Origin: Armatimonadota bacterium
Lineage (GTDB): Bacteria; Sysuimicrobiota; Sysuimicrobiia; Sysuimicrobiales; Humicultoraceae
Reading direction: 5' to 3'
DNA length: 64,000 nucleotides
Assembly (NCBI GenBank): GCA_037443365.1
Contig: JBBIOM010000007.1
Span: forward strand, 19,303 to 83,302
Positions 3,154 to 62,446 of this stretch are shown piece by piece. A program made the position numbers and the translations under genes. Every line of letters starts with the position of its first letter. Positions within the stretch are counted from its first letter, which is position 1. Below the pieces are notes generated by a model. It was not told the DNA's origin. It saw only the letters and a program-made list of their open reading frames with translations, and did not search any database.

Positions 3154-3284
3154 GGATGCTCCTTTGTTGGGTTTGCCCGGACACTCACGCGGATGCCGGG
3201 CATCTTCTCCCGGAGCCGCCGTGATCCCTCCCTGGAACTTTCGGCTTGCCTAAAGAAGAGGATTCGGGTACCTTAAGAACGACC

Positions 3285-3536
3285 ATGATGACCGCGCGCA
3301 CGCTCTCGGAGATGCGCCCAGGCGAGACCGCCCGCCTGGGGCAGATGCCGGCCGTGGAGGTCGGCCTGGCGCAGGAACTTGCGGCCGTGAGGTTGCTGCC
3401 TGGAGAGGTCGTTACGGTTCTGGCCGAGGTGGGCGCAGGCGGGCCCTTGCTGGTGCAGGGAGCCGGCGGCGTCTTCGCCTTGGGCCGCCGTCTCGCCGCT
3501 CGCCTTTCCGTTGAGGGTCTGGGTCCGTGCCCCTAG
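3285..3536 (+). CDS. feoA: FeoA-domain ferrous iron transport protein
   Basis: The small SH3-like protein reads MMTARTLSEMRPGETARL...LPGEVVTVLAEVGAGGPLLV and sits directly upstream of feoB. I chose ATG 3285 rather than the alternative start at 3246. Confidence 0.8.
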   Translation: MMTARTLSEMRPGETARLGQMPAVEVGLAQELAAVRLLPGEVVTVLAEVGAGGPLLVQGAGGVFALGRRLAARLSVEGLGPCP

Positions 3537-3577
3537 GCTGCCACGATCCCAGGTCTGGCACCCCTGCCGACGGGGAC

Positions 3578-5515
3578 ATGCAGGTCGCCCTGGCCGGCAA
3601 CCCCAACGTCGGCAAGTCCACGGTCTTCAACCTGCTGACCGGCTTCGGCGCGGCCACCGCGAACTACCCGGGCACGACCGTCGAGGTCACCGTGGCCGCC
3701 GCGCGCATCAACGGGAGCCGCGTGACCATCCTCGACCTGCCGGGCACGTACGCCCTCACGGGACACACAGAGGATCAGCAGGCGGCTCGGCGCGCCCTCC
3801 TGGAGGAGCGTCCCGACGCCGTTGTGGCGATCCTTGATGCCACCAATCTGGCGCGCAACCTGTACCTGGTCCTGCAGCTTGTGGATCTGGGGTTCCCGGT
3901 TGTGGTGGCGCTGAACCTCACGGATGAGGCAGAGCGGCGGGGGATTCACATTGACGCGGCTCGCCTGGGAGCACTGCTGGGGGTTCCTGTGGTTCCCACG
4001 GTCGCCACGCGGCGCCACGGGATGTCCGACCTCATAGCCGAGGCCATGCGCCAGGGAAGGCCGTCCGCGCAGCCCAGGCACAGGTACTGCGCGGAGATCG
4101 AGGACATCGCCGCACGGGTCGCGGCGCTCCTGGAAGGACACGTTCTGCCGGCGCGCGGGCGCGCGCTGCTGCTCCTTGAGGAGGGTGACGCTTCCGGGTT
4201 GCCCCCTGGGGTGATCACACCAGGGGCCGCCGCGGAGGCCGCGGCGATTGCCCGCGCGGTGAGCGCTCAGGGCGGGGAGGCCCTGGCGCTGGCGATCGCG
4301 CGCGAGCGGCACCTGGCGGCCGAGCGCATCGCGCACGAGGCGACACTGCGTTCAGGCCAGGCGCAGCGGCTGCACCTCTGGCGCCTGGCCACGCGGCCTG
4401 CAACCGGCGTGCCCCTGCTCCTCGCGGTGCTGGGCGCGGTGTTCGCGTGCCTGTTCTGGGGCGGGGGCGTGCTGGCCGGATTCGTGGATGCCCTCTGGGT
4501 GCGCACCGCCTCGCCCGCCATCGCCACGCTCTCCGCCTGGGCCCTGGGAGACGGCGTGCTCACGCGCATCGTGCACTGGGGCCTGGATGCGGGCCTGCTG
4601 GCCGTGCTCACCGTGGGCATCCCCTATGTGTTGACGTTCTATCTGCTGCTCTCGATCCTGGAGGACAGCGGGTACCTCAACGTTGCCGCGGTGCTGACCG
4701 ACCGGTTGATGGGCCGCCTTGGCCTGAACGGCAGGGCCGCGATCCCCCTGGTGGCGGGCGCCGGCTGCAGCGTGCCGGCGATGCTCGGGTTGCGGGTGCT
4801 GCGCAGCGAGCGCGAGCGACTCATCGGCGCCACGCTCGTGGCCTTGCTGCCGTGCAGCGCGCGTACGGCCGTGATCATGGGCGCGGTCGCCTTCCTGGGC
4901 GGCTGGCGCGCGGCGCTGCTGCTCTACCTGACCGTGGGGGTTCTCATCCTGGCGACGGGCTGGGGGCTCAACCGCCTGGTGCCTGGCCGGGCGCCGGACC
5001 TGCTCATGGAGGTCTTCCCGTTTCGCTGGCCGATGCCGCAGGGCGTGCTGCGCAAGGCGTGGTCGCGGGCCCGCGAGTTCGTCACCGTGGCCGTTCCGTT
5101 CGTTTTGGTCGGGAGCCTCCTGCTGGGCGCGCTGTACGAGACGGGCCTGATCCGTCTAGCCGAGCGGCCGCTGTCCCCGATCGTGGAGGGCTGGCTCGGC
5201 CTGCCGCCGGTGGCCGGGCTCACGCTGATCTTCGCGGTGCTGCGCAAGGAGCTCGCGCTGCAACTGCTCATCGCGCTCGCCGTCGTGCAGTACGGCAGCA
5301 GCGCGAGCAGCCTGTCGGCGTTCATGACGCCCAACCAGGTGTTCACCTATGCGCTCGTGAACACGATATACATTCCCTGCGTGGCGACGATGGCAGTACT
5401 GGCGAGGATCCTGGGCTGGCGGCGGGCCGCGGCGATCTCCGTGTTCACGATCGTGCTGGCGCTTGCCGTCGGGGGGCTGGCCACGCGGCTGCTGGCTCTC
5501 TTGGGATTCGGATAG
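3578..5515 (+). CDS. feoB: Ferrous iron transporter FeoB (G-domain plus permease)
   Basis: It begins MQVALAGNPNVGKSTVFNLLTG (G1 motif), has DLPGTY (G3), and continues into a long polytopic membrane domain. I chose ATG 3578 inside ORF 3527..5515. Confidence 0.92.
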   Translation: MQVALAGNPNVGKSTVFNLLTGFGAATANYPGTTVEVTVAAARINGSRVTILDLPGTYALTGHTEDQQAARRALLEERPDAVVAILDATNLARNLYLVLQLVDLGFPVVVALNLTDEAERRGIHIDAARLGALLGVPVVPTVATRRHGMSDLIAEAMRQGRPSAQPRHRYCAEIEDIAARVAALLEGHVLPARGRALLLLEEGDASGLPPGVITPGAAAEAAAIARAVSAQGGEALALAIARERHLAAERIAHEATLRSGQAQRLHLWRLATRPATGVPLLLAVLGAVFACLFWGGGVLAGFVDALWVRTASPAIATLSAWALGDGVLTRIVHWGLDAGLLAVLTVGIPYVLTFYLLLSILEDSGYLNVAAVLTDRLMGRLGLNGRAAIPLVAGAGCSVPAMLGLRVLRSERERLIGATLVALLPCSARTAVIMGAVAFLGGWRAALLLYLTVGVLILATGWGLNRLVPGRAPDLLMEVFPFRWPMPQGVLRKAWSRAREFVTVAVPFVLVGSLLLGALYETGLIRLAERPLSPIVEGWLGLPPVAGLTLIFAVLRKELALQLLIALAVVQYGSSASSLSAFMTPNQVFTYALVNTIYIPCVATMAVLARILGWRRAAAISVFTIVLALAVGGLATRLLALLGFG

Positions 5516-5535: not shown

Positions 5536-6891
5536 ATGTCCCCAGAGCACGTGCACAGGCACATAGACATGCACCGCCAGGAGTCGCTGGAGATCCTCAA
5601 GACCCTGGTTCGCCAACCCAGCATCAGCGCGCAGGGGATCGGCGTCAGCGAGTGCGCCCGCCTGCTGGCCGGGGTCATGAGCGATCTCGGGATTCCCTCG
5701 GAGGTGATCGAGACGCCGACCGCTCCGGTCGTGTATGGCGAGGTCGCCGGGAAGCCTGAGGGCTACACGCTGCTGTGCTACGGACACTACGACGTGCAGC
5801 CGCCCGAGCCGCTCGATCTGTGGGTGAGCCCGCCTTTCGAGCCCACGGTGCGCGACGGCCGGCTCTACGGCCGGGGGACCGGCGACAACAAGGGCCAGCT
5901 GATCGCCCACGTGCTGGCGGCCAAGGCCTGGATCGAGGCCGCGGGGGCGCCGCCTGTCAACCTCAAGTTCGTCTTCGAGGGGGAGGAGGAGTCGGGGTCG
6001 GGCGGGCTGGCCGAGTTCGTGAGGAAGCACAAGACGCGCCTGGCAGCGGACCTGGTCTACATCTCCGACGGCGGGCTGCATCCCAGCGGCGCGCCCGTCA
6101 TCTCCCTGGGCAACCGCGGGATAGTGGGGATCACGCTTGTCGCCCAGGGCGCCGATCGCGACAACCACTCGGGCAACAAGGGCGGCGTGGCGCCCAACCC
6201 TGTCTGGATGCTGGTGAACCTGCTCTCGACCATGGTGGATCCCGCGGGCCGGGTGCTGATCGAGGGCTTCTACGACAACGTGCGACCGATCGGTCCAGTG
6301 GAGGAACGGCTCCTGGCCGGTATGGAGTTTGACCCCCGCGAGTTCGCCGCAACAATGGGGCTCGATGACCTGCCGATGGACGGGGCCACCTACTGGAAGC
6401 GCATCATGCTGGAGCCGTACTTCAACATCAGCGGATTCGCCAGCGGCTACGTGGGTCCGGGATCCAAGACCATCATCCCCTCGAGGGCCGAGTGCCGCAT
6501 AGACATCCGGCTGGTGGTGGATCAGAAGACCGGCGAGATCTTCGAGAAGGTGAAGGCGCACGCGGCACGCGTGGACCCGCGCGTTCAGGTGCTCGCGCGC
6601 GGCTTCGGGTCCATGGAGCCCAGCCGCACTTCTGTGGACCACCCGGCCGTGGCCGTTGTGGCCGGCGCCATCCGGGCGGTACGGGGGATCGAGCCGTTTG
6701 TCAACCTCTGTTCAGGGGGGAGTCTACCCAACGCGGTCTGGCCCACGGTGCTTGGCGCAGATCACATCGGCGTGCCCTACGCCAACGCCGATGAGGGCAA
6801 CCACGGCCCCAACGAGAACCTGAGCCTGGAACGGTTCTACGACGGCATCCACGTGAGCGCCGAGGTCTTCCGCGCGCTGGCTGGCGTCTAG
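5536..6891 (+). CDS. M20 family metallopeptidase (dipeptidase/ArgE-DapE-like)
   Basis: It reads MSPEHVHRHIDMHRQESLEILKTLVRQPSIS...GHYDVQPPEPLDLWVSPPFEPTVRDGRLYGRGTGDNKGQL...FEGEEESGS. AGGAGG lies upstream of ATG 5536. The listed 814-aa ORF from 4447 is a run-on over feoB. Confidence 0.86.
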   Translation: MSPEHVHRHIDMHRQESLEILKTLVRQPSISAQGIGVSECARLLAGVMSDLGIPSEVIETPTAPVVYGEVAGKPEGYTLLCYGHYDVQPPEPLDLWVSPPFEPTVRDGRLYGRGTGDNKGQLIAHVLAAKAWIEAAGAPPVNLKFVFEGEEESGSGGLAEFVRKHKTRLAADLVYISDGGLHPSGAPVISLGNRGIVGITLVAQGADRDNHSGNKGGVAPNPVWMLVNLLSTMVDPAGRVLIEGFYDNVRPIGPVEERLLAGMEFDPREFAATMGLDDLPMDGATYWKRIMLEPYFNISGFASGYVGPGSKTIIPSRAECRIDIRLVVDQKTGEIFEKVKAHAARVDPRVQVLARGFGSMEPSRTSVDHPAVAVVAGAIRAVRGIEPFVNLCSGGSLPNAVWPTVLGADHIGVPYANADEGNHGPNENLSLERFYDGIHVSAEVFRALAGV

Positions 6892-44705: not shown

Positions 44706-46361
44706 GTGCGCGGAACGCGCGCATGCCTGCTGGAGCCGGAGATGAGAAGCGAGGGCAGGGTGGAATGGTGGCCCCTTCACGTGCGCGCGCTGATCGCGCT
44801 CTTCGGCCTTTCCGTTGTCCTTGTCGGCGTGCCTGCCGGGACCACGGTCAAGTCGCCGCTCACCCTGGCAGCGCTGCTTGTATTGCTGGTCGCCGCGGGC
44901 CTGCCCGGCGCCCTGACGCCTGCCCGTACCGGCGAGTTCCCCCTGGCCCGGCACAGCGGGGTGGCGCTGGAGCTGCTCATTGTGTCCTTCATCGTGTTCG
45001 AGACCGGCGGCGCCACCAGCTTCTTCTACTTCCTGTACGTGCCGGCGCTGATGCTGGCCACGCCTGGGCGCGGGATCGCCATGGGCGCGGTAACTGGCGC
45101 GGCATCCGCGGTCGGCTACGCTGTCGCAGCGGCCGCGCAGGGGGCAGTCGGGACGGTTGTGCTCCCGCGCGCGGCGCTCCTGATCCTGGCCGGGGTTCTG
45201 CTCGGGCTGATCGAGGAACGCCGGCGCGCGAGCGCCGCGCCGCTCGCCCGGGGCTACGAGATGCTTGCGCGCGAGGTCAACGCGGCCGCCGAGCAGCGCG
45301 CGGCCCTGGCGTCAATGGCGCCGCTGGATCTGGCCGGGCGCGCCAGGCAGTTCCTCGAGCGGGCGCTCCGCCTGGCGGATGCGCAGTGGGGCCTTGTGGC
45401 CATGCTGGATGACGACGGGCGTCCGGTCGTGGAAGCCCGCACCGGAACCGATGGGAGGCCCCGGCCCGCAGGCGTTTCCCTCGCGTTGGGCGGTGCGCTG
45501 GCCACCGCGCTCAGGTCAGGCGCTTCCCAGATGGTTCTGGACGCGGACAAGGACGCGGACTGGGTCAGCGTCTTCGGCGAGGATCCCGCGCGCTGCGCGG
45601 TCGTGATCCCGCTCTCGGCGCAGGGCGTACCGTTCGGCGCCCTCGTCCTGGCGCGCGATGGGCCCGGGCCGCTCTCCGACGAGCAGATGGCGGCCGCGCG
45701 AGCCCTGACCGAGATGACGGCCCCCCTGCTGAGGGACGCCCGGGCAGTGGCGCAGTCCAGCGAGTTCCTGCTGAACACGGTGAAGGCGCTGGCCGCGGCC
45801 CTGGAGGCCAAGGACCCCTACACGCTCGGCCACTCGCAGCGCGTTGCGACCTGCGCCGTCGCGATCGCCTCCGACCTGGGGCTTCCCGCGGACGAGATAG
45901 ACCGCATCCGCTGGGCGAGTCTCCTGCACGATATCGGGAAGATCGCGATCCCGGAGCACGTCCTGCGCAAACGCGGCCCCCTGAGCGATGAGGAGCGGGC
46001 GCTGATGAACCAGCACCCGGAGCGCGGGGCCAGCATCATGCGCGACGTGACGCTGTTCAGGCCGCTCGCCGACGACATCCGCTCCCACCAGGAGGCCTAC
46101 GACGGGAGCGGATACCCGGACGGCCTTGTCGGAAACGAGATTCCACTGGGCGCGCGCATCATCCGCGTCGGCGATACCTTTGACGCGGTGACCTCAAACC
46201 GCTCCTACCGGCCGGGCCGTACTGTGGAGCAGGCGATGGCCGAACTCAGCCGAGAGGCCGGTACCACGCTCGATCCGGCGCTGGTGGACGTGTTCCTCCG
46301 CATTCTGCGAGAGAAGCCGCCCTTTGAGATCCAGCTCCGGTTGTGGAGGGAGCGGTCGTAG
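44706..46361 (+). CDS. Membrane-anchored GAF plus HD-GYP domain protein (c-di-GMP phosphodiesterase type)
   Basis: It has N-terminal hydrophobic segments and a central GAF-like region. The HD-GYP region reads HSQRVATCAVAIASDLGL...LLHDIGKIAIPEHVLRKRGPLSDEERALMNQHPERG...HQEAYDGSGYPDGL. The start is uncertain: 44706 or ATG 44742. Confidence 0.88.
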   Translation: MRGTRACLLEPEMRSEGRVEWWPLHVRALIALFGLSVVLVGVPAGTTVKSPLTLAALLVLLVAAGLPGALTPARTGEFPLARHSGVALELLIVSFIVFETGGATSFFYFLYVPALMLATPGRGIAMGAVTGAASAVGYAVAAAAQGAVGTVVLPRAALLILAGVLLGLIEERRRASAAPLARGYEMLAREVNAAAEQRAALASMAPLDLAGRARQFLERALRLADAQWGLVAMLDDDGRPVVEARTGTDGRPRPAGVSLALGGALATALRSGASQMVLDADKDADWVSVFGEDPARCAVVIPLSAQGVPFGALVLARDGPGPLSDEQMAAARALTEMTAPLLRDARAVAQSSEFLLNTVKALAAALEAKDPYTLGHSQRVATCAVAIASDLGLPADEIDRIRWASLLHDIGKIAIPEHVLRKRGPLSDEERALMNQHPERGASIMRDVTLFRPLADDIRSHQEAYDGSGYPDGLVGNEIPLGARIIRVGDTFDAVTSNRSYRPGRTVEQAMAELSREAGTTLDPALVDVFLRILREKPPFEIQLRLWRERS

Positions 46362-46368
46362 CAGGGAC

Positions 46369-47385
46369 TCAGAAGTCGCCGGCCGAGGCGGTAGCGACCG
46401 TCGTGTTGCCCCCGGCACAGGCGCGCACAAGGGCTTCCTCCGCCCGCTCTATGAGCCCCTGGGCGCTCTCGGCGTCCCGGGGGTAGCACGCCAGTCCTAT
46501 GCTGACGGTGGGCGTCAGCGGGTACGGATGCCCGGGGGGGACGAACACCGTGCTCTCGACGGACCTACGGATGCGCTCCGCCAGCGCGAACGCTCCCTCG
46601 AGCGATGTCTCGGGCAGGACCAGCCCAAACCTGCCCGAACCCAGAGAGGCGCGGAGATCAACGAGCCGCGTCTCGGCCGTCAGTACTCCGGAGATGTGCA
46701 CGGCTATGGCCGTGGATGCCTCGCTCCCCAGGGTGCCGCTGATCTCCTCTTCCTGGTCAACCGCGAGCAGGGCCAGGGCGAAGGTGCGCCCGAACCGCTG
46801 GCTCCTGGCCAGTTCGCGCGCGGCGGCAGTCGCGAAGAAGGTCGCGTTGAACAGGCCGGTCTGCGCATCAACGATTATCTGCCTCCGCGCGCGCTCGCGC
46901 AGCTCGTCGAGCCGGCTCTGCTCGGTCAGCCCCCTGCGCGCGCGCTGCCGCTCGTGCCGCTGGATGACCTCGAGGACACCGGCCGATATCAGGCGGTTCA
47001 AGAAATGGACTGCCTCGGCATCCTGGTCGCCGGGGGGCACGGCTCCGGCCAGGAAGTCGAGCACGGCCGGCTTTACGTCCAGGAGGGCCCGGATCACCTC
47101 TTCCAGCGGCGTGTCCAGGGCGAAGGCCTCACCGCTGAGCCTGCCCGCGAACTCAACGAAGGACGACACCTGCCCGGTGCTTGCCGCCTCGGCGAGCGCG
47201 TCCAGCCCGGCCTGGGCATGCCGCTCCAGCCGCTCGTGGTCCTTCCACACCTGCCCACGAGCGGGAGTGAGGGCCATGGCGCGGGCCCAGTGCGTCGCCA
47301 GCATCCGGCGTCGCGTGCGTATGAGCTCAAGGGTGGAGGGGTTCATCGCGGCATCTTGTAGACCTGTTACTATGGCCGAGCGCAA
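46369..47385 (-). CDS. Degenerate GGDEF-domain protein with retained RxxD I-site (candidate c-di-GMP receptor)
   Basis: The C-terminal GGDEF fold reads DAQTGLFNATFF...LLAVDQEEE...TRLVDLRASLGSGRFGLVLPET...TVSIGLA...AEEALVRA. The signature GG(D/E)EF is replaced by GSGRF, while RLVD sits exactly 5 residues upstream. The N-terminal roughly 165 aa form a helical domain of unknown type. The start codon is uncertain. Confidence 0.82.
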   Translation of the reverse strand: MRSAIVTGLQDAAMNPSTLELIRTRRRMLATHWARAMALTPARGQVWKDHERLERHAQAGLDALAEAASTGQVSSFVEFAGRLSGEAFALDTPLEEVIRALLDVKPAVLDFLAGAVPPGDQDAEAVHFLNRLISAGVLEVIQRHERQRARRGLTEQSRLDELRERARRQIIVDAQTGLFNATFFATAAARELARSQRFGRTFALALLAVDQEEEISGTLGSEASTAIAVHISGVLTAETRLVDLRASLGSGRFGLVLPETSLEGAFALAERIRRSVESTVFVPPGHPYPLTPTVSIGLACYPRDAESAQGLIERAEEALVRACAGGNTTVATASAGDF

Positions 47386-48840: not shown

Positions 48841-48938
48841 GGCAACCCTCGAACAGGCAAACCCGCCGCGAGGCGGGGACGCAAAGCCAACGGGGCCTGG
48901 AGGCCCGAGTCCGCGGGCTCCGGGCCGGCCGGGTTGCC
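48841..48938 (+). promoter_or_regulatory. c-di-GMP-I (GEMM-I) riboswitch-like aptamer, copy A
   Basis: GGCAACCC-tcgaaca-GGCAAACC-CGCC-GCGA-GGCG-GGGACGCAAAGCC-aaCGGGGCC-tgga-GGCCCG...GCCGGGTTGCC. It has the two conserved GEMM-I cores, a GNRA-capped hairpin between them and an outer 8-bp helix (48841-48848 with 48931-48938). An SD-like AAGGGGAG follows 2 nt later. Confidence 0.78.
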
Positions 48939-49674
48939 GAAGGGGAGACGCTTGGAATCCCTTCGTGTCCAGAGCTTTGAGGCGATTGGGGCTGGGGCGA
49001 TCGTCTTCGCGGGTTTGTGCGGAGACGAGGTGGACCTGGAGCGGCTTGTGGCGCACCTGGCCGCGCGCGGCTTTGACGGCGGCGTGCTCGTGGGCGATGA
49101 GGCGACCGAGGGAGTGCTCTGGTTCCGGGACGGCGCGCCGCGCGAGGCATGGGTGTTCGAGGCGGGCGACATCCCGGAGATGCTGCCCGATGGCCCTGGT
49201 CGCGAGCGCCTGAGTGCACTGGCCTCGCGAGGCTGCCGGATCAGCGTCGTGGCGTGCGAGCCGCCTGACGAGCCGCCGGAACTGGCGGACTGGTCCGACG
49301 CACAGCCCCCCGAGTACGGGACGGCCGCTGAGCCGCCTGCCCACCCGTGGCCCGCGATCCTCGAACGCATGGCGGTGCGCATCGCGCGCAGCCGCGGGCC
49401 CCGCCTGGCGAGCCATTTCGCGGCGGCCCTGGTCAGGGCGCTGGAGCGTCACGGCGGCGGCATGGACGGCGAGCGCGTGCACGCCCCGCAACTGCCCGAG
49501 TCGACTTGGCGCGCGATAGTGGAGGTGGCATGCGCGCCGATAGTGACGATCGCCGGGCGCGCCTTCGCCGACCGGACCATAGCAGCCTGCGAACGCGACG
49601 TGCGCGATGCCGAAGGGATGCCAGAAGCGGTGGCCGAAGGCGAGGGGCCGGCCGAAGGCGAGGGGCCGGCATGA
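48934..49674 (+). CDS. Hypothetical protein (no recognisable family; DUF4388-like flavour in the N-terminal part)
   Basis: 246-aa ORF. TTG 48934 lies inside the riboswitch outer helix, so in-frame TTG 48952, downstream of AAGGGGAG, may be the real start. It reads LERLVAHLAARGFDGGVLVGDEATEGVLWFRDGAPREAWV, and the C-terminus carries a duplicated EGEGPA. Confidence 0.55.
   Translation: MPKGRRLESLRVQSFEAIGAGAIVFAGLCGDEVDLERLVAHLAARGFDGGVLVGDEATEGVLWFRDGAPREAWVFEAGDIPEMLPDGPGRERLSALASRGCRISVVACEPPDEPPELADWSDAQPPEYGTAAEPPAHPWPAILERMAVRIARSRGPRLASHFAAALVRALERHGGGMDGERVHAPQLPESTWRAIVEVACAPIVTIAGRAFADRTIAACERDVRDAEGMPEAVAEGEGPAEGEGPA
49633..49668 (+). repeat. Perfect 2 x 18-bp tandem duplication inside the CDS
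   Basis: GCCGAAGGCGAGGGGCCG occurs twice in a row, encoding AEGEGP AEGEGP at the C-terminus of the 48934 gene. Confidence 0.9.
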
Positions 49675-50423
49675 GGCCGCCCCCCTGGCTGCCCAAGGCG
49701 GTCATCGGCCTCATGGCAGGGGCGGCCGGCATCACCTACGGCCTGGACGGCGGCGGCGCTCACGTGCAGGCGGCGCGGGCCGCGGTCGGGTCAACGCTGC
49801 AACTCCTGGCGCCGCTCGTGGCCGGGTTCGGGTGCCTGATGGCGGCTGCGGCCTATGCGCGTGGTGACCGCGAGCGCGCGGTGTGGGTGATCGCGGCGTG
49901 GGCCACGCTGGCCTGGGCCGCCGGGCGTGCCATCTCCGCGGCCGGACGGTGGGGCGGGGGCGGCGCGGCGTACTCCCCGTCGGCGGCCGACGCGTTCTAT
50001 GTCGCCTTCTTCGTGCTGCTCAGTGCCGCCGTTTGGATGGAGGCCCGGCTTGTCTGGCCCGTGCTGGAACCGCGGATCCGCAGGAATCTGGTCGTGTACG
50101 GCGGTCTGATATGGGGGTCTGTGGTTGTCGCGACGCTGGCATTGCTCGCGCGCGGCGAGGCCCCGGTCTTCCAGAAGATGCTGGCCGCCTTCTACCCTGC
50201 GGCCGCGATGCTGCTCGTACCTGCCTGCCTGGTTCCTGCCGCCGGCTTCAGTGGAGGCACCTCCGCCTACACGTGGCTCACCCTGGCGATGGCTGCGTTG
50301 TGCATGGCCGGGGCGAGTCTCCTGCATCCGATCGTGCACAGGGCCGACGCGCTGTGGGTGGCGGGCTTCATCTTCCTGGCGGCCGGTGCCTTCTGGCAGC
50401 GCGCCGCGCTGGAGGAGGTCTAG
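49671..50423 (+). CDS. Polytopic integral membrane protein, unknown family
   Basis: ATG 49671 overlaps the upstream stop (ATGA). It is about 250 aa with roughly 6-7 hydrophobic segments and has no soluble domain. Confidence 0.6.
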   Translation: MRPPPWLPKAVIGLMAGAAGITYGLDGGGAHVQAARAAVGSTLQLLAPLVAGFGCLMAAAAYARGDRERAVWVIAAWATLAWAAGRAISAAGRWGGGGAAYSPSAADAFYVAFFVLLSAAVWMEARLVWPVLEPRIRRNLVVYGGLIWGSVVVATLALLARGEAPVFQKMLAAFYPAAAMLLVPACLVPAAGFSGGTSAYTWLTLAMAALCMAGASLLHPIVHRADALWVAGFIFLAAGAFWQRAALEEV

Positions 50424-50428
50424 CTGCC

Positions 50429-51169
50429 GTGGCCGCCGCTGGTGTGGCCGGTCTGCTGCACTACGGGTGGACACGGGGCTTTGCCGCCGTGGTCGAGGCG
50501 CCTGCCCGGCGAACCGCGGCGGTCTTCGGTCCTGCTGGCTGGGTGCAGGGCGATCCCTCGTCCGTCCTGCCCGCCGGCGCACCGCCTGGCGCAGAGGTGG
50601 TGCGCCTGGCGCTCACCGAGCGGCTGGCCGATCAGATAGCCGGCCTGCAGTTCTCCATTGGCGGTCTGCACACCGAGTTCGTGCGGCTGCGCTCCTTGTT
50701 GGGACGGCTGTGCGCGCAGGGCGCCGACAGCGTGGTGCTCGTCCTCGGCGAGAGGCCCGCGGTCTTCGCGGTGGCAGACGGCGAGATCACCTCGGCCGGG
50801 CTGGATGCGACACCCCCCGAGGAAGCCCGAGGATGGATCGTGGTCTTCTCCGGCAAGGTCAGCCTGCCCGCGGCCGAGGCCCCGGGTGCTGCCGATGAGA
50901 CCTACTTCGTTCCCAGCAACAGCCGGGACTCACTGCCCGAGGAGGTGGCGACCGCCATCCTGAAGGTGGCCGGGCCCGCGGGCGAACGCGTGCCCGGTCT
51001 GCTCGACGGCACGCGCACGATTGGGGTGGTCGCAGGCATGGCCGGGCTGAGCGCCGGACAGGCGCGCGCAGCCGTGGGCGTGCTGGTCGCGCACCGGCTG
51101 GCCTTCAGGTGCGTCAGCCGCCCCAAGGCCGGCTCGCGTACGAAGCAGGGCAGTTCAGCGCAACCCTGA
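50429..51169 (+). CDS. Hypothetical protein, unknown family
   Basis: GTG 50429 lies 10 nt after GGAGGAGG. It reads LRSLLGRLCAQGADSVVLVLGERPAVFAVADGEITSAG, similar in pattern to the 48934 product. The C-terminal part LLDGTRTIGVVAGMAGLSAGQARAAVGVLVAHRL looks winged-helix-like. Confidence 0.5.
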   Translation: MAAAGVAGLLHYGWTRGFAAVVEAPARRTAAVFGPAGWVQGDPSSVLPAGAPPGAEVVRLALTERLADQIAGLQFSIGGLHTEFVRLRSLLGRLCAQGADSVVLVLGERPAVFAVADGEITSAGLDATPPEEARGWIVVFSGKVSLPAAEAPGAADETYFVPSNSRDSLPEEVATAILKVAGPAGERVPGLLDGTRTIGVVAGMAGLSAGQARAAVGVLVAHRLAFRCVSRPKAGSRTKQGSSAQP

Positions 51170-51394: not shown

Positions 51395-52210
51395 ATGGCG
51401 GCAAGACCGCCGCAACGCCAGGCAGTGGTGCCGGAGCCCCGCGGCGCAGAGGCCTCCGGCCCCGACGACGCCGACCTGGCGCTTGAGGAATACGCCGCCA
51501 CGCGCAGCCCGCAGGCGCAGGAGCGCGTCGTCGCCGCCTGCACGCCACTGGTGCGGCGCATCGCCGCCGAGTTCGCGTACTCGGGAGTCCCGACCGAGGA
51601 TCTGATCCAGGTGGGCTACATCGGGCTGCTCAACGCCATCAACGGGTTCGACGCGGGCCGCGGCGCGAAGTTCGCCACCTACGCCGGCTACCTCGTACGC
51701 GGCGAGATCCGTCACTACCTGCGCGACCAGCGGGACACGATCCGCAGACCGCGCTGGTTTCAGAGGCTCAACACCCGCATCGAGGAGACCATCAGCGCGC
51801 ACGTCAGCGAGACCGGGCGCTTCCCCGGTCTCGACGTCCTGGCGCGCGCTCTCAACGTGGAGGAGGAGGGGCTCCTGGAGGTCCTGCGCGCAAGGGAGAT
51901 CCTTCGCACGGTCTCCATCGAGGCCGACGACGATGGGGCCGACCTCCGCGTTGATCGCGACCGGATACGGCACCGCACGCACGTCAGCTTCCAGCTTCCG
52001 ATCGAGGACCGCGTCACGCTGATGGAGGCGCTGGAGTCGCTCACCGCGCTGCAGCGCAAGGTCGTTTACTACCTTTTCTACACCGACCTTACACAGATGG
52101 AGGCCGCCAAACAGATCGGCATCTCGCAGAAGCACGTGTCGCGCGTGCTTGCCGCCGCGCTGAACAAGCTGCGCGGCGCGCTGGGCGCGCCGTCGCACGG
52201 GGCTCTGTAG
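51395..52210 (+). CDS. Group-3 sigma-70 family factor (SigB/SigF/SigG-like)
   Basis: Region 2 reads DLIQVGYIGLLNAINGFDAGRGAKFATYAGYLVRGEIRHYLRD. Region 4 reads LQRKVVYYLFYTDLTQMEAAKQIGISQKHVSRVLAAALNKLR. AGGAGG lies 9 nt upstream of the ATG. Confidence 0.9.
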   Translation: MAARPPQRQAVVPEPRGAEASGPDDADLALEEYAATRSPQAQERVVAACTPLVRRIAAEFAYSGVPTEDLIQVGYIGLLNAINGFDAGRGAKFATYAGYLVRGEIRHYLRDQRDTIRRPRWFQRLNTRIEETISAHVSETGRFPGLDVLARALNVEEEGLLEVLRAREILRTVSIEADDDGADLRVDRDRIRHRTHVSFQLPIEDRVTLMEALESLTALQRKVVYYLFYTDLTQMEAAKQIGISQKHVSRVLAAALNKLRGALGAPSHGAL

Positions 52211-52229
52211 GATAGGGGAGGAATCCGGG

Positions 52230-52586
52230 ATGTCGCAGTTGAAGGACTTGCTCGCCGAACTGACCAGGGTTGACGGCGTGGTGGCGGCCATGATCGTGGG
52301 CCGTGACGGGTTCGTCGTGGAGGGCCTGACGACGGAGGAGCGGGTGGACCTCGAGGCGGTCGGCGCGGTCGTGGCCAGCAACATAGCGGTGGCCGACTCG
52401 ATGGGCAAGGAGATGGGCCGCGGCTCGCTGCGCACGATGCTGCTGGAGTACGACGAGGGCCCGGTGGCCGTCGGGCCGGCCGGGGCCGACGCCGTCATCG
52501 TCGTGGTGGGTACGCGGCTGGCCAACCTGGGGCGCGTCCGCCTCGAGATGCGGCGCAACAGCCAACTCGCGGCCGCGCTGGTCTAG
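52230..52586 (+). CDS. Roadblock/LC7 (MglB-like) domain protein
   Basis: 118 aa. It reads LAELTRVDGVVAAMIVGRDGFVVEGL...LRTMLLEYDEGPVAVGPAGADAVIVVVGTRLANLGRVRLEM and begins 19 nt after the sigma gene. Confidence 0.85.
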   Translation: MSQLKDLLAELTRVDGVVAAMIVGRDGFVVEGLTTEERVDLEAVGAVVASNIAVADSMGKEMGRGSLRTMLLEYDEGPVAVGPAGADAVIVVVGTRLANLGRVRLEMRRNSQLAAALV

Positions 52587-52681
52587 ATGGTCCCGGCCCC
52601 GCCTGCTTCCCGCAATGTTCCCGGGACTAGCCCGGAACCCTTCGGGGAACATACCCACCGCAGAATCATCTCTGGAGGAGC

Positions 52682-53125
52682 ATGACGATGCGGCGTCAGT
52701 CGCGGCCCGGCCGAGCCAGGGGCGAGGCAGGGTTCACATACCTTGAGTTGCTCGTTGCCCTCTCGCTCTTCGCCGCGTTCTCGGTGATCCTTCTCCAGAC
52801 ATTCATCGTCGGCATGGCGCATGCCGGCCGGGCCAACGACCGCGCGGCCGCCACTACCCTCGCCGTTCAGGTGATGGAGCAGATCCGCGCCAGCGTTAAC
52901 CCGGTGGAGATGGTGGGCTTCACGGACCTTGCGCGCTCGCCGCTCCCCCTGCCGGATCCCTACACCGGCGTGACCAACCCGACCCCCCACACGTTCCAGG
53001 TGGCCGTGGACGTCACCCACGATACGAACCTGCGCCTCACCACCGCCACCGTCCAGATCTACAGGCCCGCCGATCTGAACGGCGCGCCGTTTGTCACGCT
53101 CACGACGGTGCTGGATGACAAGTGA
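52682..53125 (+). CDS. Prepilin-type N-terminal cleavage/methylation domain protein (pilin or PilV/GspI-like minor pilin)
   Basis: A charged leader is followed by G|FTYLELLVALSLFAAFSVILL (Glu at +5). The protein is 147 aa. Confidence 0.8.
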   Translation: MTMRRQSRPGRARGEAGFTYLELLVALSLFAAFSVILLQTFIVGMAHAGRANDRAAATTLAVQVMEQIRASVNPVEMVGFTDLARSPLPLPDPYTGVTNPTPHTFQVAVDVTHDTNLRLTTATVQIYRPADLNGAPFVTLTTVLDDK

Positions 53126-53702
53126 GATTCGCGCCGCGCCAGAGTTGCCGCCCCTGCAAGGAGACCGTGGCGTCACCCTGATCGAGCTGGTCGTGGCGCT
53201 GGGCCTGCTGATGCTCGTTCTGGGGAGCATCTACGCGATCGTGGCCGTCGGGGGCAGGTCCGCCCGCACAACCAACGACTTCCTCCAGGCCCAGGCGCAC
53301 GTGCGCACGGCCCTCGACGTCATGGTGGACGAGATGCGCTGGGCAGAGGCCGTCACATGCGCGTCGCAGACGGCGGTCACGCTGGCCGTGCCGCAGGACA
53401 CGCCCTTCTCTCAGACGAGTCCCTACCGGGTGACCTTCGCGCACGACGCCAGCGCCGCGACGCTCGTGCGCAGGCAGGACGATGCCGGAAGCGGGTGCCC
53501 GAGTTCGGGCGTAGGCAGGCCACTGGCGTACTTCATTGGCGCAGGCGGCCTGGCCTTCGAGTACTTCGACGCCAACGGCGACACGCTGGGAACGACGCCC
53601 GGCGACCTGACGCCCATCGCTCGCGTCAGGATCAGGGTGACCGTCACGCGGGATCACGTGAGCCGCACCTTCGCAGGTGATGCCGCACTGCGCGCCCGCT
53701 AG
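53115..53702 (+). CDS. Prepilin-type protein (PilW/GspJ-like minor pilin)
   Basis: ATG 53115 overlaps the upstream gene by 11 nt. It reads G|VTLIELVVALGLLMLVLGSIYAIV (Glu +5), with DVMVDEMRWAE typical of PilW-like proteins. Confidence 0.75.
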   Translation: MTSEIRAAPELPPLQGDRGVTLIELVVALGLLMLVLGSIYAIVAVGGRSARTTNDFLQAQAHVRTALDVMVDEMRWAEAVTCASQTAVTLAVPQDTPFSQTSPYRVTFAHDASAATLVRRQDDAGSGCPSSGVGRPLAYFIGAGGLAFEYFDANGDTLGTTPGDLTPIARVRIRVTVTRDHVSRTFAGDAALRAR

Positions 53703-53725
53703 GCGCGGGCAAGGGGTGAGAAGAG

Positions 53726-55816
53726 ATGCTGCGCCTGACTAGATGCCAACAGGGGATGGCGCTCGTCGCGGTACTGGCCGTCATCCTCATCCTGTCGCTT
53801 CTGGGCGCCCTCATTCTCTATCTGAGCGGGAAGGAGATGGGACTGAGCGCGCTGCGGGTCATCGGCGCGCAGAGCATGTACATCGCCGAGGGGGGCGCCT
53901 ATTCGGGCCGCGCCGCGCTCATGGCGCTCATGGGCGCCGATCCGATCGGGCAGGTCACCGTGGACCCGTCCCTGGACAGCACGACCCTGCTCGTCTGGTA
54001 TGGAGGCGCGACCGGGGAGGTGGGCCTCCAGAACTCGCTTCGCATCATTGACTTCCTTATCCTCGACGGCCGGCGCTTCACCCTCAACGCGACCCCGTCC
54101 ACGGACTCGCTCGTCTTCCACGTCAACTGGGGCCTGCCCGAGCCGCACCGGAAGCTGCAGGCGGCCGCTGGGCTACCGCCTTCCAACCCGCTGGGGGAAG
54201 GGAGCCACAGGACTACGGTCACGCTCAGGCGGCGGCTCGCATCGCCCGAGAGCGCCCCGAACGAGCCGGCCCGGTACATCCAGCGTATGGGCGGGGCCGG
54301 GGGCGACCACGAGTACGAGTTCTACTACTCCTACGAGATCACGAGCGACGGGCGCGTGAACCCGCAGGCCAGGCGCAGGATCGCGCTGCGCGGCGACTTC
54401 AGCATCTACCTGCGGCGGGATACCTTCGCCAAGTACGCGCTGTTCTCGCACGTGCACACCGGACCCGCGGGCGAGGCGCTCTGGTTCGCCGATATGTCCA
54501 TGTACGACGGGCCCGTGCACACGAACACCGAGTTCCGCTTCGCCTACTTCCCGAAGTTCGGCACCCCTGACAGCGGGATACCCTGCCGGGAGGCGAACGC
54601 CAGGACCACGCGCCTGACCAGCGCCTGGCGGACGGCCTGGTTCTTCAACCGCGGCAGCCCGCGTCAGATAGAGGCCAACGAGAACGTGGTCAGCGGACAG
54701 CGCCGCGACGCACCGGTGTTGCCCGACTGCGACACCAACAGCAGCAACGATCACGACAACGCCCCGGCCGACTTCACGCGCGGGGTGGCCACGATCCCCA
54801 TTCCCTCCAACCCGTTCAGCCAGAAGGGCGTGACCGTGGGACGCGACCCGTCGGATACCAGCGCGGTCCCCAACCGGCTCATACGGGAGGCGGTCCCCGA
54901 ACTCCCGGACAACTCGAGCGCGGTTCCCTCCGGGATATACGTACCGGTTCGAGACGACAACGCCAACGGCATCTCCGACCCCGACGAACCCCTCTCAGGC
55001 GGCATCCTCGTGCAGGGCGATCTGACAAGCTTGGTGCTCGGCATGACCGACAGCGGCGCGTCGCCGGGCGCCTGCAGCCAGAGCGCGGGGTCGCCGGGCG
55101 GCTGCGCGCGTTACACCCTGGTCCAGGGGACTCAAACCGTCACGGTGGTCGTGGACCGCGTGACGCAGCGCACCACGGTCACCAACACGGCCTGGCCCTC
55201 GGGCAACCAGACGCGGACGTTCGCCGGCGTTCCCAAGGGATGGCAGGGCCTGGGCAACGCGAACGCGGCCATCATCTACGTCGAGGGAGCGATCCTCTCG
55301 CTGCACGGCACGCTCGAGGAGAAGGAGCAGACCACGATCGTTGCCTCCGGGCGCATTGACATCACCAACCACATCCGCTACGAGGCGCCTCCTGTGGTCA
55401 CCAATCCCGAGCACAACCCGATCAACCTGCTCGGGATATACTCGCCCAACAACGACGTGCGCTTCGTCACCAACCCCAACGACCCGAGCACGCGCGACCT
55501 CGACATCCACGCCGTGATCATGGCGGGCAACCTGGCGGACGGGTACAACAGCCGCGTGTTCAACGCGACGTGGAACGACAATCCCCCGCGGGGCGAGATA
55601 CGCCTGATCGGCGGGCTGATCCAGGAGTACCTGGGCGTCTTCGGGGTCATGAACACCGCCGGGCAGCTCATCAGGGGCTACGGCTCGTACTTCAGGTACG
55701 ACCGCAGGATGAACCGCGGGTTCTCGCCGCCCTACTTCCCGACGATGACCCTGTATCAGGTGGAGGCGCGCAACTTCGCCGGTCGGCGGCCCACGTGGCG
55801 CGAGGGGTCCCCTTGA
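53726..55816 (+). CDS. Large PilX-N-terminal-like pilus protein (possible tip or adhesin component)
   Basis: It begins QQG|MALVAVLAVILILSLLGALILYL (PilX_N-like, no Glu +5), followed by about 650 aa of Gly/Asn/Thr/Pro-rich, beta-rich sequence with no further motif I can name. Confidence 0.6.
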   Translation: MLRLTRCQQGMALVAVLAVILILSLLGALILYLSGKEMGLSALRVIGAQSMYIAEGGAYSGRAALMALMGADPIGQVTVDPSLDSTTLLVWYGGATGEVGLQNSLRIIDFLILDGRRFTLNATPSTDSLVFHVNWGLPEPHRKLQAAAGLPPSNPLGEGSHRTTVTLRRRLASPESAPNEPARYIQRMGGAGGDHEYEFYYSYEITSDGRVNPQARRRIALRGDFSIYLRRDTFAKYALFSHVHTGPAGEALWFADMSMYDGPVHTNTEFRFAYFPKFGTPDSGIPCREANARTTRLTSAWRTAWFFNRGSPRQIEANENVVSGQRRDAPVLPDCDTNSSNDHDNAPADFTRGVATIPIPSNPFSQKGVTVGRDPSDTSAVPNRLIREAVPELPDNSSAVPSGIYVPVRDDNANGISDPDEPLSGGILVQGDLTSLVLGMTDSGASPGACSQSAGSPGGCARYTLVQGTQTVTVVVDRVTQRTTVTNTAWPSGNQTRTFAGVPKGWQGLGNANAAIIYVEGAILSLHGTLEEKEQTTIVASGRIDITNHIRYEAPPVVTNPEHNPINLLGIYSPNNDVRFVTNPNDPSTRDLDIHAVIMAGNLADGYNSRVFNATWNDNPPRGEIRLIGGLIQEYLGVFGVMNTAGQLIRGYGSYFRYDRRMNRGFSPPYFPTMTLYQVEARNFAGRRPTWREGSP

Positions 55817-56251: not shown

Positions 56252-58460
<2,209 letters not shown>

Positions 58461-58465
<5 letters not shown>

Positions 58466-58540
58466 CCCAGCCAGCCGGGGGCTTCCACCACCGGCCCTGT
58501 GGCTTTGCGTCCCCGGATCGCTCCGGGTTTGCCCTTACGG
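58461..58540 (-). promoter_or_regulatory. c-di-GMP-I (GEMM-I) riboswitch-like aptamer, copy C
   Basis: The minus strand reads ccgtaaGGGCAAACC-CGGA-GCGA-TCCG-GGGACGCAAAGCC-aCAGGGCCGG...GGCTGGGTTGCC. The 3' conserved GGGTTGCC (58468-58461) overlaps the first candidate start codon (TTG 58465) of the TPR-PilB gene. Confidence 0.76.
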
Positions 58541-58658
58541 GACTAGTGCACTAAACTTCTGGGTATACTCTAACTTGCCCCTGCAGAGATTGCACCGAGG
58601 GTATCACGGAGCGCGGCTTGGCGCAAGGCCATATTGAGAGGAGTTCCGGGGAGGAATC

Positions 58659-60511: not shown

Positions 60512-60750
60512 AGGTGGAGCTGGACCGCGAGCAGGTCGTGATCTTCACGCCGTCACACAGGATCGAGGGCGAGCTGCACCTGCCCTCGAGCGCCCGGCTC
60601 TCCGACCGGCTGAACCAGGCCAAGGACTTCCTGGCCATTACCTCGGCGCGCGTCTTCACCCTGGACGACCGTCCGCTCTACGAGGCCGGCGTCGTGTTTC
60701 TGCACAAGTCCTACATCGTGATGCTTATGGAGCGTCATGAGGCCATCTAG
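60508..60750 (+). CDS. 80-aa hypothetical protein, unknown family
   Basis: It reads MKVELDREQVVIFTPSHRIEGELHLPSSARLSDRLNQAKDFLAITSARVFTLDDRPLYEAGVVFLHKSYIVMLMERHEAI. It has an ATGA overlap with merR-like and a 14-nt overlap with pilB. The pattern looks beta-rich. Confidence 0.5.
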   Translation: MKVELDREQVVIFTPSHRIEGELHLPSSARLSDRLNQAKDFLAITSARVFTLDDRPLYEAGVVFLHKSYIVMLMERHEAI

Positions 60751-62446
60751 GAGCCCGACCTCGCGTCGCCGGGTGCGGCTCGGCGAGATCCTGGTGGAGG
60801 CCGGGCTGATCACGAGCGCCCAGCTCGAGAAGGCGCTGTCGGCACAGAACGCCAGCGGCGACCGCCTGGGCAGGGTGCTGGTGAGCCAGGGGCTGACCAC
60901 GCAGGAGGCCATCAGCAAGGCCGTGGCCAGCCAGATGGGAATCGAGTACGTCAACGTGCAGTCCGTAGGGATCCCCGAGGAGGTGCTCACGGCCGTTCCC
61001 GAGTGGCTGATACGGCGCCACCAGGTCATCCCGCTGCGCAGGGAAGGGAACACGCTCGTCGTGGGGATGGTGGACCCCCTCGACGTGGTGGCGCTCGATA
61101 CGGTCCGGCGCGTCGCCAAGCTCGACCTGGTACCGGCCGCGATCACGCCCGAGGGGTTCCAGCACGCCGTCAACCAGTACCCGGCCCTGGAGGGCACCCT
61201 GGACCAGGTCATCCAGGAGATCCGCCCCGCGGACGTGGGCGAGGAGGAGCCGGGCCTCGATCGGCTGCGCGAGATAGTCGAGGACGCCCCGGTCGTGCGC
61301 CTGGTGAACCTGATGCTGGTTCAGGCGGTGCGCCAGGGCGCCAGCGATGTGCACGTGGAGCCGCAGGAGGACCGCGTTCGCATACGCTACCGCATTGACG
61401 GCACGCTCTACGGCGTCATGACCGCGCCCAAGCACGTGCAGGCCGCGACCACGAGCCGCATCAAGATCATGGCCAACATGAACATCGCCGAGCGCCGCGC
61501 GCCGCAGGACGGGCGGATCGAACTGCGCGTGGACAACCGCGAGATTGACCTGCGCGTCAGCAGCGTCCCCACCGTGTTCGGCGAGAAGGTGGTCATGCGG
61601 ATCCTCGACAAGCGGGCGGCGCTGGTCGGCGTGGACAGGCTCGGCCTGTTGGGGCCGGACCTGCCGCGATTCGAGTCGCTGATCGCCAAGCCTTACGGCA
61701 TCATCCTCATCACCGGCCCGACCGGCAGCGGCAAGACCACCAGCCTGTACGCCATCCTCAACCGGCTGAACAAGACCGACGTCAACATAATCACGGTCGA
61801 GGACCCGGTGGAGTACCAGCTCGCCGGCATCAGCCAGGTCCAGATCAACCCCAAGGCCGGTCTGACCTTCGCCACCGGTTTGCGGTCTTTCCTGAGGCAG
61901 GACCCGGATATTATCATGGTGGGGGAGATACGCGACGAGGAGACCGCGCGCATCGCGATCCACGCCGCGCTGACCGGGCACTTGGTCCTCTCGACGCTGC
62001 ACACCAACGACGCGCCCGGCGCCGTGGCTCGCCTCGCGGACATGGGCGTGGAGCCGTTCCTGGTCTCCTCTTCGGTGATCGGCGTGGTCGCGCAGCGCCT
62101 GGTGCGCGTGCTCTGCCCGCAGTGCCGCGAGGCGTACACGCCTCCGGTCGAGGTGCTGGAGCGCTACCGGCTCATAGGCCCCGGCGACCCGCCGCCCGTG
62201 ATCTACCGTCCGCGGGGCTGCGACCGGTGCAACCACATCGGATACAAGGGGCGCATCGGGCTCTTCGAGATCATGGTCATGGACGATGAAGTGCGCGCGC
62301 TCGTCGTGCGGGAGTCCTCGGCGGATGTGCTCAAGGCCGCCGCCGTCGCCGCCGGGATGCGCACGCTGCACCTGGACGGCGTGGCCAAGGTGCTGGCCGG
62401 GACGACGTCGCTCGAAGAACTGCTCCGAGTCGTTTTCGTCGAATAG
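60737..62446 (+). CDS. pilB: Type IV pilus assembly ATPase PilB (GspE family) with intact MshEN-type motifs
   Basis: It has tandem RLGEILVEAGLITSAQLEKALSAQ and RLGRVLVSQGLTTQEAISKAVASQ, a T2SSE_N region and ILITGPTGSGKTTSL (Walker A). It also has FLRQDPDIIMVGEIRD and a tetracysteine motif (CPQCR...CDRCNHIGY). Confidence 0.93.
   Translation: MRPSRSPTSRRRVRLGEILVEAGLITSAQLEKALSAQNASGDRLGRVLVSQGLTTQEAISKAVASQMGIEYVNVQSVGIPEEVLTAVPEWLIRRHQVIPLRREGNTLVVGMVDPLDVVALDTVRRVAKLDLVPAAITPEGFQHAVNQYPALEGTLDQVIQEIRPADVGEEEPGLDRLREIVEDAPVVRLVNLMLVQAVRQGASDVHVEPQEDRVRIRYRIDGTLYGVMTAPKHVQAATTSRIKIMANMNIAERRAPQDGRIELRVDNREIDLRVSSVPTVFGEKVVMRILDKRAALVGVDRLGLLGPDLPRFESLIAKPYGIILITGPTGSGKTTSLYAILNRLNKTDVNIITVEDPVEYQLAGISQVQINPKAGLTFATGLRSFLRQDPDIIMVGEIRDEETARIAIHAALTGHLVLSTLHTNDAPGAVARLADMGVEPFLVSSSVIGVVAQRLVRVLCPQCREAYTPPVEVLERYRLIGPGDPPPVIYRPRGCDRCNHIGYKGRIGLFEIMVMDDEVRALVVRESSADVLKAAAVAAGMRTLHLDGVAKVLAGTTSLEELLRVVFVE

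Follow-up and report, generated by a model that had tools for sequence, protein, structure and literature searches.

In the 64,000-nt stretch of DNA analysed here (the window, to which all positions refer unless a locus is named), a gene for a pilus-type ATPase on the minus strand begins directly behind an RNA element that a first-pass annotation had called a GEMM-I-like aptamer. The locus raises two questions: what kind of RNA switch the element is, and how an aptamer lying so close to its gene might control it. The reading that we favour, with a rough probability of 0.62, is that a canonical c-di-GMP-I riboswitch occupies the leader of the TPR-PilB gene, that the 3' strand of its closing helix P1 is the Shine-Dalgarno (SD) sequence, and that c-di-GMP turns translation off.

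In the following sections, we describe the gene, the aptamer and its orthologs, and the start of translation, and then weigh the possible modes of control.

The regulated gene

The gene and the ligand motif predicted in its product are as follows.

56252..58450, minus strand: TPR, linker, MshE-type c-di-GMP motif, MshEN and T2SSE (PilB/GspE-type) ATPase, 732 aa (Pfam, NCBIfam)
57779..57937, minus strand: predicted MshE-type c-di-GMP-binding motif, residues 172-224 (53 aa), PLGQVLLGLGLVSEAQLAEAMEIQ-SRTGE-RIGHILLEMGAATEADLARGMAEQ

The Pfam matches are TPR_11, MshEN and T2SSE (8e-146), and the domain order is TPR, a Pro/Ala-rich linker, and MshEN with the T2SSE ATPase. Among the NCBIfam models, TIGR02533 (GspE) gives 650.7 bits, above its cutoff of 630.25, and TIGR02538 (PilB) gives 662.5, just below its cutoff of 675.65; the gene context, which includes PilT, PilC and pilin-like genes, favours a pilus ATPase. 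Judged from sequence, the gene is a second PilB-type ATPase paralog beside a canonical PilB-PilT-PilC operon. NF053729 scores 57.4 bits on the protein (cutoff 38), and residues 172-224 fit the relaxed 24-5-24 c-di-GMP-binding motif defined in PMC5013675, with P, not R, as the first residue.

Detection of the aptamer and orthologous loci

Rfam cmscan, run on the 64-kb window at gathering thresholds, places a c-di-GMP-I-clan aptamer at 58457-58542 on the minus strand, where RF03167 scores 59.3 bits (gathering score 59); the E-values are 1.9e-11 for the entire window and 1.3e-13 for a local scan. A covariance model made in this analysis from the orthologous aptamers, R1, gives the window copy 100.2 bits over 58453-58544. 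The match is far above chance. Scoring with covariance models, which the first-pass annotation had proposed as a check, is thus positive with both models, and the sequence quoted there, GGGCAAACC-CGGA-GCGA-UCCG-GGGACGCAAAGCC ... GGCUGGGUUGCC, is present on the minus strand.

58457..58542, minus strand: aptamer copy C, c-di-GMP class I (GEMM-I), UCCCGUAAGGGCAAACCCGGAGCGAUCCGGGGACGCAAAGCC...GGCUGGGUUGCCGGUG (Rfam, R1 and pairing)

Orthologous loci were recovered by genome, metagenome and protein searches and are referred to as L001, L081, L082, L083, L084, L085, L086, L087 and L088. The nearest relatives that bear a name are Armatimonadota MAGs. L083 matches the corresponding L082 sequence, but its DNA reaches only 27 nt beyond the gene on the upstream side; it stands outside the count of nine loci, which comprises the window, L001, L081, L082, L084, L085, L086, L087 and L088. 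In all nine TPR-PilB loci that have upstream DNA (9/9), the aptamer lies directly upstream of the gene in the same orientation. Among the other 79 PilB-family loci, the ortholog-built model gave no credible aptamer match and a single marginal hit (L045, 21.4 bits, E 0.017); the association of aptamer and gene is specific to the TPR-PilB paralog. Note that the family is rare (nine loci; searches for further protein orthologs yielded only three proteins), so the power of the comparison is limited.

The loci fall into two designs. In the abutting clade (window, L081, L082 and L086), the N-terminal 130 residues of the protein are 76-93% identical, and three of the four examples are mutually 91-93% identical over these residues. 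In five spaced orthologs (L001, L084, L085, L087 and L088), 60-110 nt separate the aptamer from the start; L001, L084, L085 and L087 are 50-61% identical to the abutting clade, and the L088 protein is 59% identical to that of the window. In the annotation of L086 (GCA_964384245.1), the ortholog at 3001-5325 is divided into a gene of 144 aa (TPR) and another of 591 aa, which points to a frameshift, to an error of assembly or to a genuine split.

Class of the aptamer

In Vc2, the bases G20, A47 and C92 are the key ligand contacts (PMC11218506), and the window copy has the canonical set at the corresponding positions.

58533, minus strand: G20 equivalent, an unpaired G directly 5' of the GC:GC pairs, invariant in 11 aptamers
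58506, minus strand: A47 equivalent, in ACGCAAAGCC, invariant in 11 aptamers
58462, minus strand: C92 equivalent, the unpaired C of UGCC between P1b and P1 (Rfam alignment, all copies)

All three equivalents are invariant across an alignment of 11 related aptamers, in which ACGCAAAGCC, with A at the A47 position, occurs 11 times out of 11. RF03167 is labelled as the 'GGC variant'. Reading the family name together with the model consensus, we take 'GGC' to mean that G replaces A47, since the consensus at this column is ACGCGAAgCc in RF03167 and ACGCAAAgCc in RF01051. The label is misleading for the window copy because G20, A47 and C92 are all canonical there; on sequence grounds we regard it as an artefact of clan competition, the score gain of RF03167 probably coming only from the fact that this model covers P1 and the short second hairpin. 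Orthologs L081 and L082, which are nearly identical to the window copy, have RF01051 as their best model (58.9 and 59.6 bits, respectively; gathering score 35). It is therefore a problem of annotation that Rfam clan competition gives the 'GGC' label to canonical G20/A47/C92 aptamers with short second hairpins.

True membership in the c-di-GMP-I-GGC class (RF03167), with a ligand other than c-di-GMP, is highly improbable: RF03167 is the top-scoring clan member, but its score lies only at the threshold (59.3 against 59), the class-distinguishing position 47 is A, not G, in the window and in all 11 related aptamers, and the near-identical L081 and L082 prefer RF01051. A cGAMP-sensing GEMM-Ib riboswitch was considered and rejected as well: position 20 is G (G58533), invariant in every copy, and the cGAMP-sensing type reportedly has A, not G, at this position. 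The earlier label 'GEMM-I-like' named the right family and was too cautious, in that the sequence is that of a canonical c-di-GMP-I aptamer of the GYRA-tetraloop type without receptor, from which we infer that it binds c-di-GMP.

Structure of the aptamer and its leader

The aptamer consists of the following parts.

58538..58543, minus strand: P1 5' strand GUCCCG; (A)GUCCCG is invariant in the orthologs, with GUCUCG in L001
58507..58532, minus strand: first hairpin P1a/P2, GC-AAA-CCCGGA-GCGA-UCCGGG-GAC-GC (Rfam alignment)
58464..58504, minus strand: second hairpin P1b/P3 with a GGAA tip loop at 58486-58483 (Rfam alignment, ViennaRNA fold, pair counts)
58455..58461, minus strand: P1 3' strand CGG(U)GGU, which pairs with 58543-58538 and has U58458 bulged

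The two hairpins are joined by AAA (ACGC-AAA-GCC), the first is capped by GCGA, and both are enclosed by P1; a layout of two hairpins with a linker and a GNRA tetraloop has been described for the family (PMC1950547). The GNRA hairpin noted in the first-pass annotation is indeed present, as a GCGA (GYRA) tetraloop at 58521-58518 on a stem of 6 bp. The second hairpin of the window copy has no 11-nt tetraloop receptor, which is usual for aptamers with a GYRA loop (PMC1950547).

Pairing is well supported by the alignment of 11 sequences, where 92.5% of cells are paired, compared with 21-49% for slid-partner controls, and 11 pairs are changed on both sides; the observed values were reached in 0 of 500 shuffles. 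In the first hairpin, all pairs are retained in the 11 sequences, with compensatory changes in three. Unconstrained MFE folds of the leaders are no better than those of shuffles (z -0.15 and -0.43) and do not reproduce the full aptamer.

In the window, P1 is short, with 6 bp, a bulge and two G.U pairs. Its 3' strand reads CGG-U-GAU in L081, L082 and L086, CGG-A-GACU in L085, and CGAGAU in L001. The pairing GUCCCG:CGG(N)GRU is kept in the orthologs, with a compensatory change from C:G to U:A in L001 and exchanges among G.U, G:C and U:A in P1 of the others. A conserved extension of P1 beyond 6-7 bp was considered and discarded: the predicted outer helix of 8 bp, GUGCACUA:UGGUGCAU, occurs in the window only.

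Two further patterns flank P1. Direct repeats of 6-7 nt, at 58546-58551 (just 5' of ACUAGUCCCG) and at 58451-58456 before the GTG on the minus strand, vary in parallel among loci: the window has GUGCAC/GUGCAU, L081 and L086 have GAUGGAC/GAUGGAC, and L082 has GAUGGAC/GAUGAC. The two copies are complementary to each other in the window only, where they correspond to the predicted 8-bp outer helix. In addition, a DNA palindrome of 10-12 bp, (G)GGACTAGTCC(C), overlaps the P1 5' strand (58539-58548, minus strand, in the window); L081, L082, L085, L086 and L087 have it, and the window, L001 and L084 have an imperfect form (GCACTAGTCC). The palindrome could serve as an operator, given that the divergent operon includes a MerR-like gene, or it could fold in the RNA as a hairpin in competition with P1.

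Upstream of the aptamer, the leader contains a putative promoter region.

58567..58626, minus strand: promoter-like block, conserved in all orthologous leaders

The block reads TTGCGC (58626-58621)-N17-TACCCT, then GTGCAA (58595-58590)-N17-TAGAGT (58572-58567), and then CCCAGAAG. Consensus promoter and terminator scans made no calls in the leaders of the window, L081 and L084, and for this reason our statements on promoters and terminators draw on conservation and ViennaRNA folds only.

Start codon and ribosome-binding site

Four candidate start codons proposed in the first-pass annotation, TTG 58465 and GTG 58459, 58456 and 58450, are all in frame with the ORF 56252-58465. The first of them, TTG 58465 within GGGTTGCC, had been put forward as the point where the aptamer contains the start; it is almost certainly not the start, judging by L082, where the same frame runs TTG CCG GTG ATG ACG TGA. 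GTG 58459 and GTG 58456 were rejected together with the TTG: their SD duplexes are weak, and the TTG/ATG frame of L082 meets TGA.

58448..58450, minus strand: likeliest start codon, GTG (usable in 4/4 abutting loci; N-termini, SD duplex, GC3)

The comparison of sequences makes GTG 58450 the most likely start. Only its equivalent is usable in all four abutting loci (window, L081, L082 and L086). The conserved N-terminus, V/M-TSD-D/E-xGLxALKTASGLSGENLTLERA, follows right after it, and orthologs that start with ATG (MPTADHRDGALHTLK...) align from this residue onward. GC3 climbs to the coding level from about 58450. The possibility raised in the first-pass annotation, that translation really starts much further downstream, finds no support: the stretch conserved among the ortholog proteins sets in one residue past GTG 58450, and no further in-frame ATG, GTG or TTG occurs between this codon and the conserved TPR region. 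The SD duplex of the 20 nt before GTG 58450 has an energy of -8.8 kcal/mol, the other three candidates reach only -4.5 to -5.1, and the corresponding values in L081, L082 and L086 are -9.2 to -9.4 kcal/mol, all calculated with an assumed, generic anti-SD sequence, as the window has no 16S rRNA gene.

The SD and P1 coincide. GGUGAU is complementary to AUCACC at the usual 3' end of 16S rRNA. Bases 58460-58455 on the minus strand are at the same time the SD-like GGUGGU and P1 3' strand, and GTG 58450 lies 4 nt downstream of them. The junctions between aptamer and gene read UGCC-GGUGGU-GCAU-GUG in the window, UGCC-GGUGAU-GGAC-GUG in L081 and L086, and UGCC-GGUGAU-GAC-GUG in L082. In the window copy all six SD nucleotides are inside P1, whose 3' strand thus probably doubles as the ribosome-binding site. 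The overlap of the closing helix with the initiation region, as first proposed, is real because the last base of the aptamer, 58457, is only 7 nt from GTG 58450; what changes is the element involved, which is the SD-like GGUGGU and not a TTG start codon.

Some details of the start region vary among loci. An out-of-frame start-stop, AUG-UGA, at 58447-58452 on the minus strand overlaps the GUG start, and L082 has AUG ACG UGA at this site. L081 and L086 have an in-frame ATG two codons before the GTG, and this is the annotated start in L086.

Spaced orthologs

A GC-rich hairpin and, behind it, a U-rich tract make up a terminator-like element in the spacer of the five spaced orthologs; this element does not overlap the aptamer. 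These orthologs have a G-rich SD-like stretch of their own (GGAGG in L087). Antiterminator folds were calculated for L001, L084, L085 and L087, and three of the four show the pairing: when the RNA ends after the 5' arm of the hairpin, this arm pairs with the aptamer 3' strand GGGCUGC in the MFE structures of L001, L084 and L087. In L085 the same pairing is possible (-12.5 kcal/mol) and is not the MFE structure.

The abutting clade has neither the terminator nor the spacer segment. Relative to L001, the window is missing about 102 nt, including the terminator, the SD and the original ATG, and the proteins of the abutting clade are 3-6 residues shorter at the N-terminus. These differences fit a deletion of terminator, SD and ATG that may have left P1 as the SD; the opposite direction is possible, the tree being unrooted.

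This deletion can be extended to a wider scenario that we consider rather unlikely. An ancestral riboswitch of the terminator type would have lost a platform of about 100 nt together with the SD and ATG, and the 3' strand of P1 would have become the SD of a new GTG. The high-affinity RNA would then stop synthesis of an ATPase that is itself a c-di-GMP receptor, at the same time as the lower-affinity MshE-type motif requires c-di-GMP for activity, so that an alternative pilus motor would be under incoherent control of a band-pass or pulse type.

Proposed mechanism and alternatives

Vc2-type aptamers take up c-di-GMP at the junction, and P1 is stabilised by the bound ligand. In the same manner, c-di-GMP would bind the three-helix junction of the window copy and lock P1. 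The locked P1 would bury the SD and block the initiation of translation, so that the gene is off. The clade of the window would thereby do without a separate expression platform, since the putative SD is the P1 3' strand. With every base of the SD in P1, the bound RNA cannot leave it exposed, and a translational OFF switch is predicted; both the direction and the translational level of control are thus inferred. In the spaced orthologs, the arm of the hairpin and the aptamer 3' strand would form an antiterminator when the ligand is absent; the ligand would preclude this pairing, and the bound aptamer would free the arm, so that the terminator forms and the gene is likewise off. As modelled, the two designs agree in direction: with c-di-GMP the gene would be off, through SD occlusion in the window and through termination in the spaced orthologs.

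The calculated folds are less simple than this scheme. In the apo ensemble of the abutting leaders, calculated with no ligand term, the SD is 26-51% unpaired, and there is no clean two-state picture. The 8-bp outer helix predicted in the window could keep the ribosome-binding site closed whatever the ligand state. In addition, since the regulated ATPase has a c-di-GMP-binding motif of its own, the same messenger may act on both mRNA and protein. This motif would make OFF control incoherent with activation by the ligand, which may reflect a band-pass design or speak against the predicted direction.

The strongest alternative, which we rate as improbable yet worth keeping in view, is a functional aptamer that acts at another level or in the opposite direction, either with SD occlusion mainly triggering Rho-dependent termination or mRNA decay, or as an ON switch. 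In the ON version, the apo RNA would sequester the ribosome-binding site by the 8-bp outer helix or the first codons, and the ligand would shift the pairing register. MFE folds do draw a CCC-GUAA-GGG mini-hairpin near the ribosome-binding site, and the outer helix in the window, but these alternative helices are not conserved in L081, L082 and L086. ON switches are numerous among GEMM-I representatives, their terminators overlapping the aptamer (PMC1950547), and the c-di-GMP motif of the encoded ATPase would fit coherent ON control, as with pilA1 of C. difficile (PMC6366702). Against an ON switch stand the six SD nucleotides, all in P1, which the ligand-bound fold must mask, and the spaced orthologs, in which pairing of the terminator 5' arm with the aptamer 3' strand follows an OFF logic.

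A less probable alternative, to which we give little weight, is that the aptamer of the window's clade is a relic that regulates nothing, its expression platform having been removed by the deletion of about 100 nt. It accounts for the segment missing relative to L001 and for the shortened N-termini described above, but the aptamer is intact in four abutting lineages despite a protein identity of 76-93%, with the conserved core bases all kept. Moreover, as we read the sequences, changes within the clade in the second hairpin keep pairing (G:C in the window, A:U in L086), and the junction regularly recreates an SD-like GGUGAU or GGUGGU 3-4 nt before the GTG. These observations argue against a relic.

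Comparison with known systems

The element is a known kind of RNA switch in a new host and before a new gene, and not a new kind. It resembles the GYRA type of RF01051 (PMC1950547) in its two hairpins, AAA linker, GCGA tetraloop and canonical G20/A47/C92, and the RF01051 family in its 5' regulatory position and its association with pilus genes; GEMM-I elements upstream of pilus genes were reported when the family was discovered (Weinberg et al. 2007, PMC1950547). The aptamer itself is the same as in that family, whereas the host lineage and the TPR-MshEN-PilB gene are absent from the examples in the literature searched.

Among individual switches, Cd1 (Cdi-1-3), which belongs to the flgB operon of C. 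difficile, and Bc1 of B. thuringiensis are class I OFF switches of motility or surface-appendage operons and act through c-di-GMP-promoted termination (PMC6366702, PMC11218506). The spaced L001, L084, L085, L087 and L088 resemble them; the window copy differs in having no terminator or spacer, and its predicted control is translational, with the SD in P1. Cdi-2-4 of C. difficile, upstream of pilA1 and the pilB operon, is a class II switch turned ON by antitermination (PMC6366702). It is likewise a c-di-GMP riboswitch at type IV pilus genes, but it is class II, ON and before a pilin gene, whereas that of the window is class I and before an ATPase paralog.

The position of the SD has parallels in other classes. 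The preQ1-I type III, preQ1-II and SAM-II riboswitches have the SD within the aptamer fold (PMC10622847, PMC11625349). Such designs share with the predicted mechanism the lack of a separate platform and the direct occlusion of the SD by ligand-stabilised pairing. They differ in being pseudoknots with other ligands; in the window copy, which folds as a three-way junction, the closing helix provides the SD with its 3' strand. No class I c-di-GMP riboswitch whose SD is one strand of P1 turned up in a limited search of the literature.

At the protein level, the 24-5-24 motif ahead of MshEN/T2SSE is shared with the MshE/PilB ATPases that have MshEN (Wang et al. 2016, PMC5013675). The window protein adds an N-terminal TPR and a Pro-rich linker to that architecture, and its first motif, starting with P instead of R, corresponds only to the relaxed form of the motif in PMC5013675.

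These comparisons add a well-supported c-di-GMP-I riboswitch regulon for a poorly studied lineage, Armatimonadota. The orthologous riboswitches of a single gene appear to use two platforms, a terminator and an SD embedded in P1, and the pair of the window and a spaced ortholog is a natural case for studying the exchange of platforms.

Type IV pilus and c-di-GMP island

In addition to copy C, the window contains two aptamers of the c-di-GMP-I clan.

48846-48941, plus strand: aptamer A, RF01051, 51.1 bits
51254-51332, plus strand: aptamer B, RF03167 label, 70 bits, with A at the A47 position

By sequence, the window thus has three probable c-di-GMP riboswitches, copy C among them, within an island of type IV pilus and c-di-GMP genes. 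The first-pass annotation had noticed copy C through its likeness to the reverse complement of 48857-48889, in aptamer A. As quoted, this comparison gives 12 of 33 identities; with a shift of one base (48856-48888) it gives 29 of 33, so that the likeness stands and the coordinates do not. The four differences between copy C and 48856-48888 form two compensatory pairs in the P1a stem.

Aptamer B lies 62 nt upstream of a gene for a SigB/F/G-like sigma factor (genes 51395-55816), which is followed by genes for a Roadblock/LC7 protein, two pilin-like (N_methyl) ORFs and a DUF4900 protein. The operon divergent from the TPR-PilB gene encodes a DnaB_C/AAA_25 protein, a MerR-like regulator, DUF6812, the canonical MshEN-PilB, PilT and PilC. 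The DnaB_C/AAA_25 protein with which this operon opens is unusual, and the gene order is kept in L086 and L087. The canonical PilB paralog (60737-62446, plus strand) scores 66.4 bits with NF053729, yet has no riboswitch. Just upstream of the three riboswitches, at 44706-47385, are a GAF and HD-GYP (HD_5) gene and a convergent GGDEF gene. With genes for making and breaking c-di-GMP next to the riboswitches, enzymes and RNA sensors lie in one island.

The ORFs behind aptamer A (48934-49674 and 49883-51169) have no Pfam or NCBIfam match. In aptamer A, GGGTTGCC holds the first candidate start (TTG 48934) of the downstream ORF, and is followed by an SD-like GGGGAG and then a second in-frame TTG. 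In the spacer of aptamer B, GGCAGCCCGG is complementary to the aptamer 3' strand, and a small hairpin there carries a U-rich tail; L001 has an ortholog of aptamer B at 5579-5656 on the minus strand.
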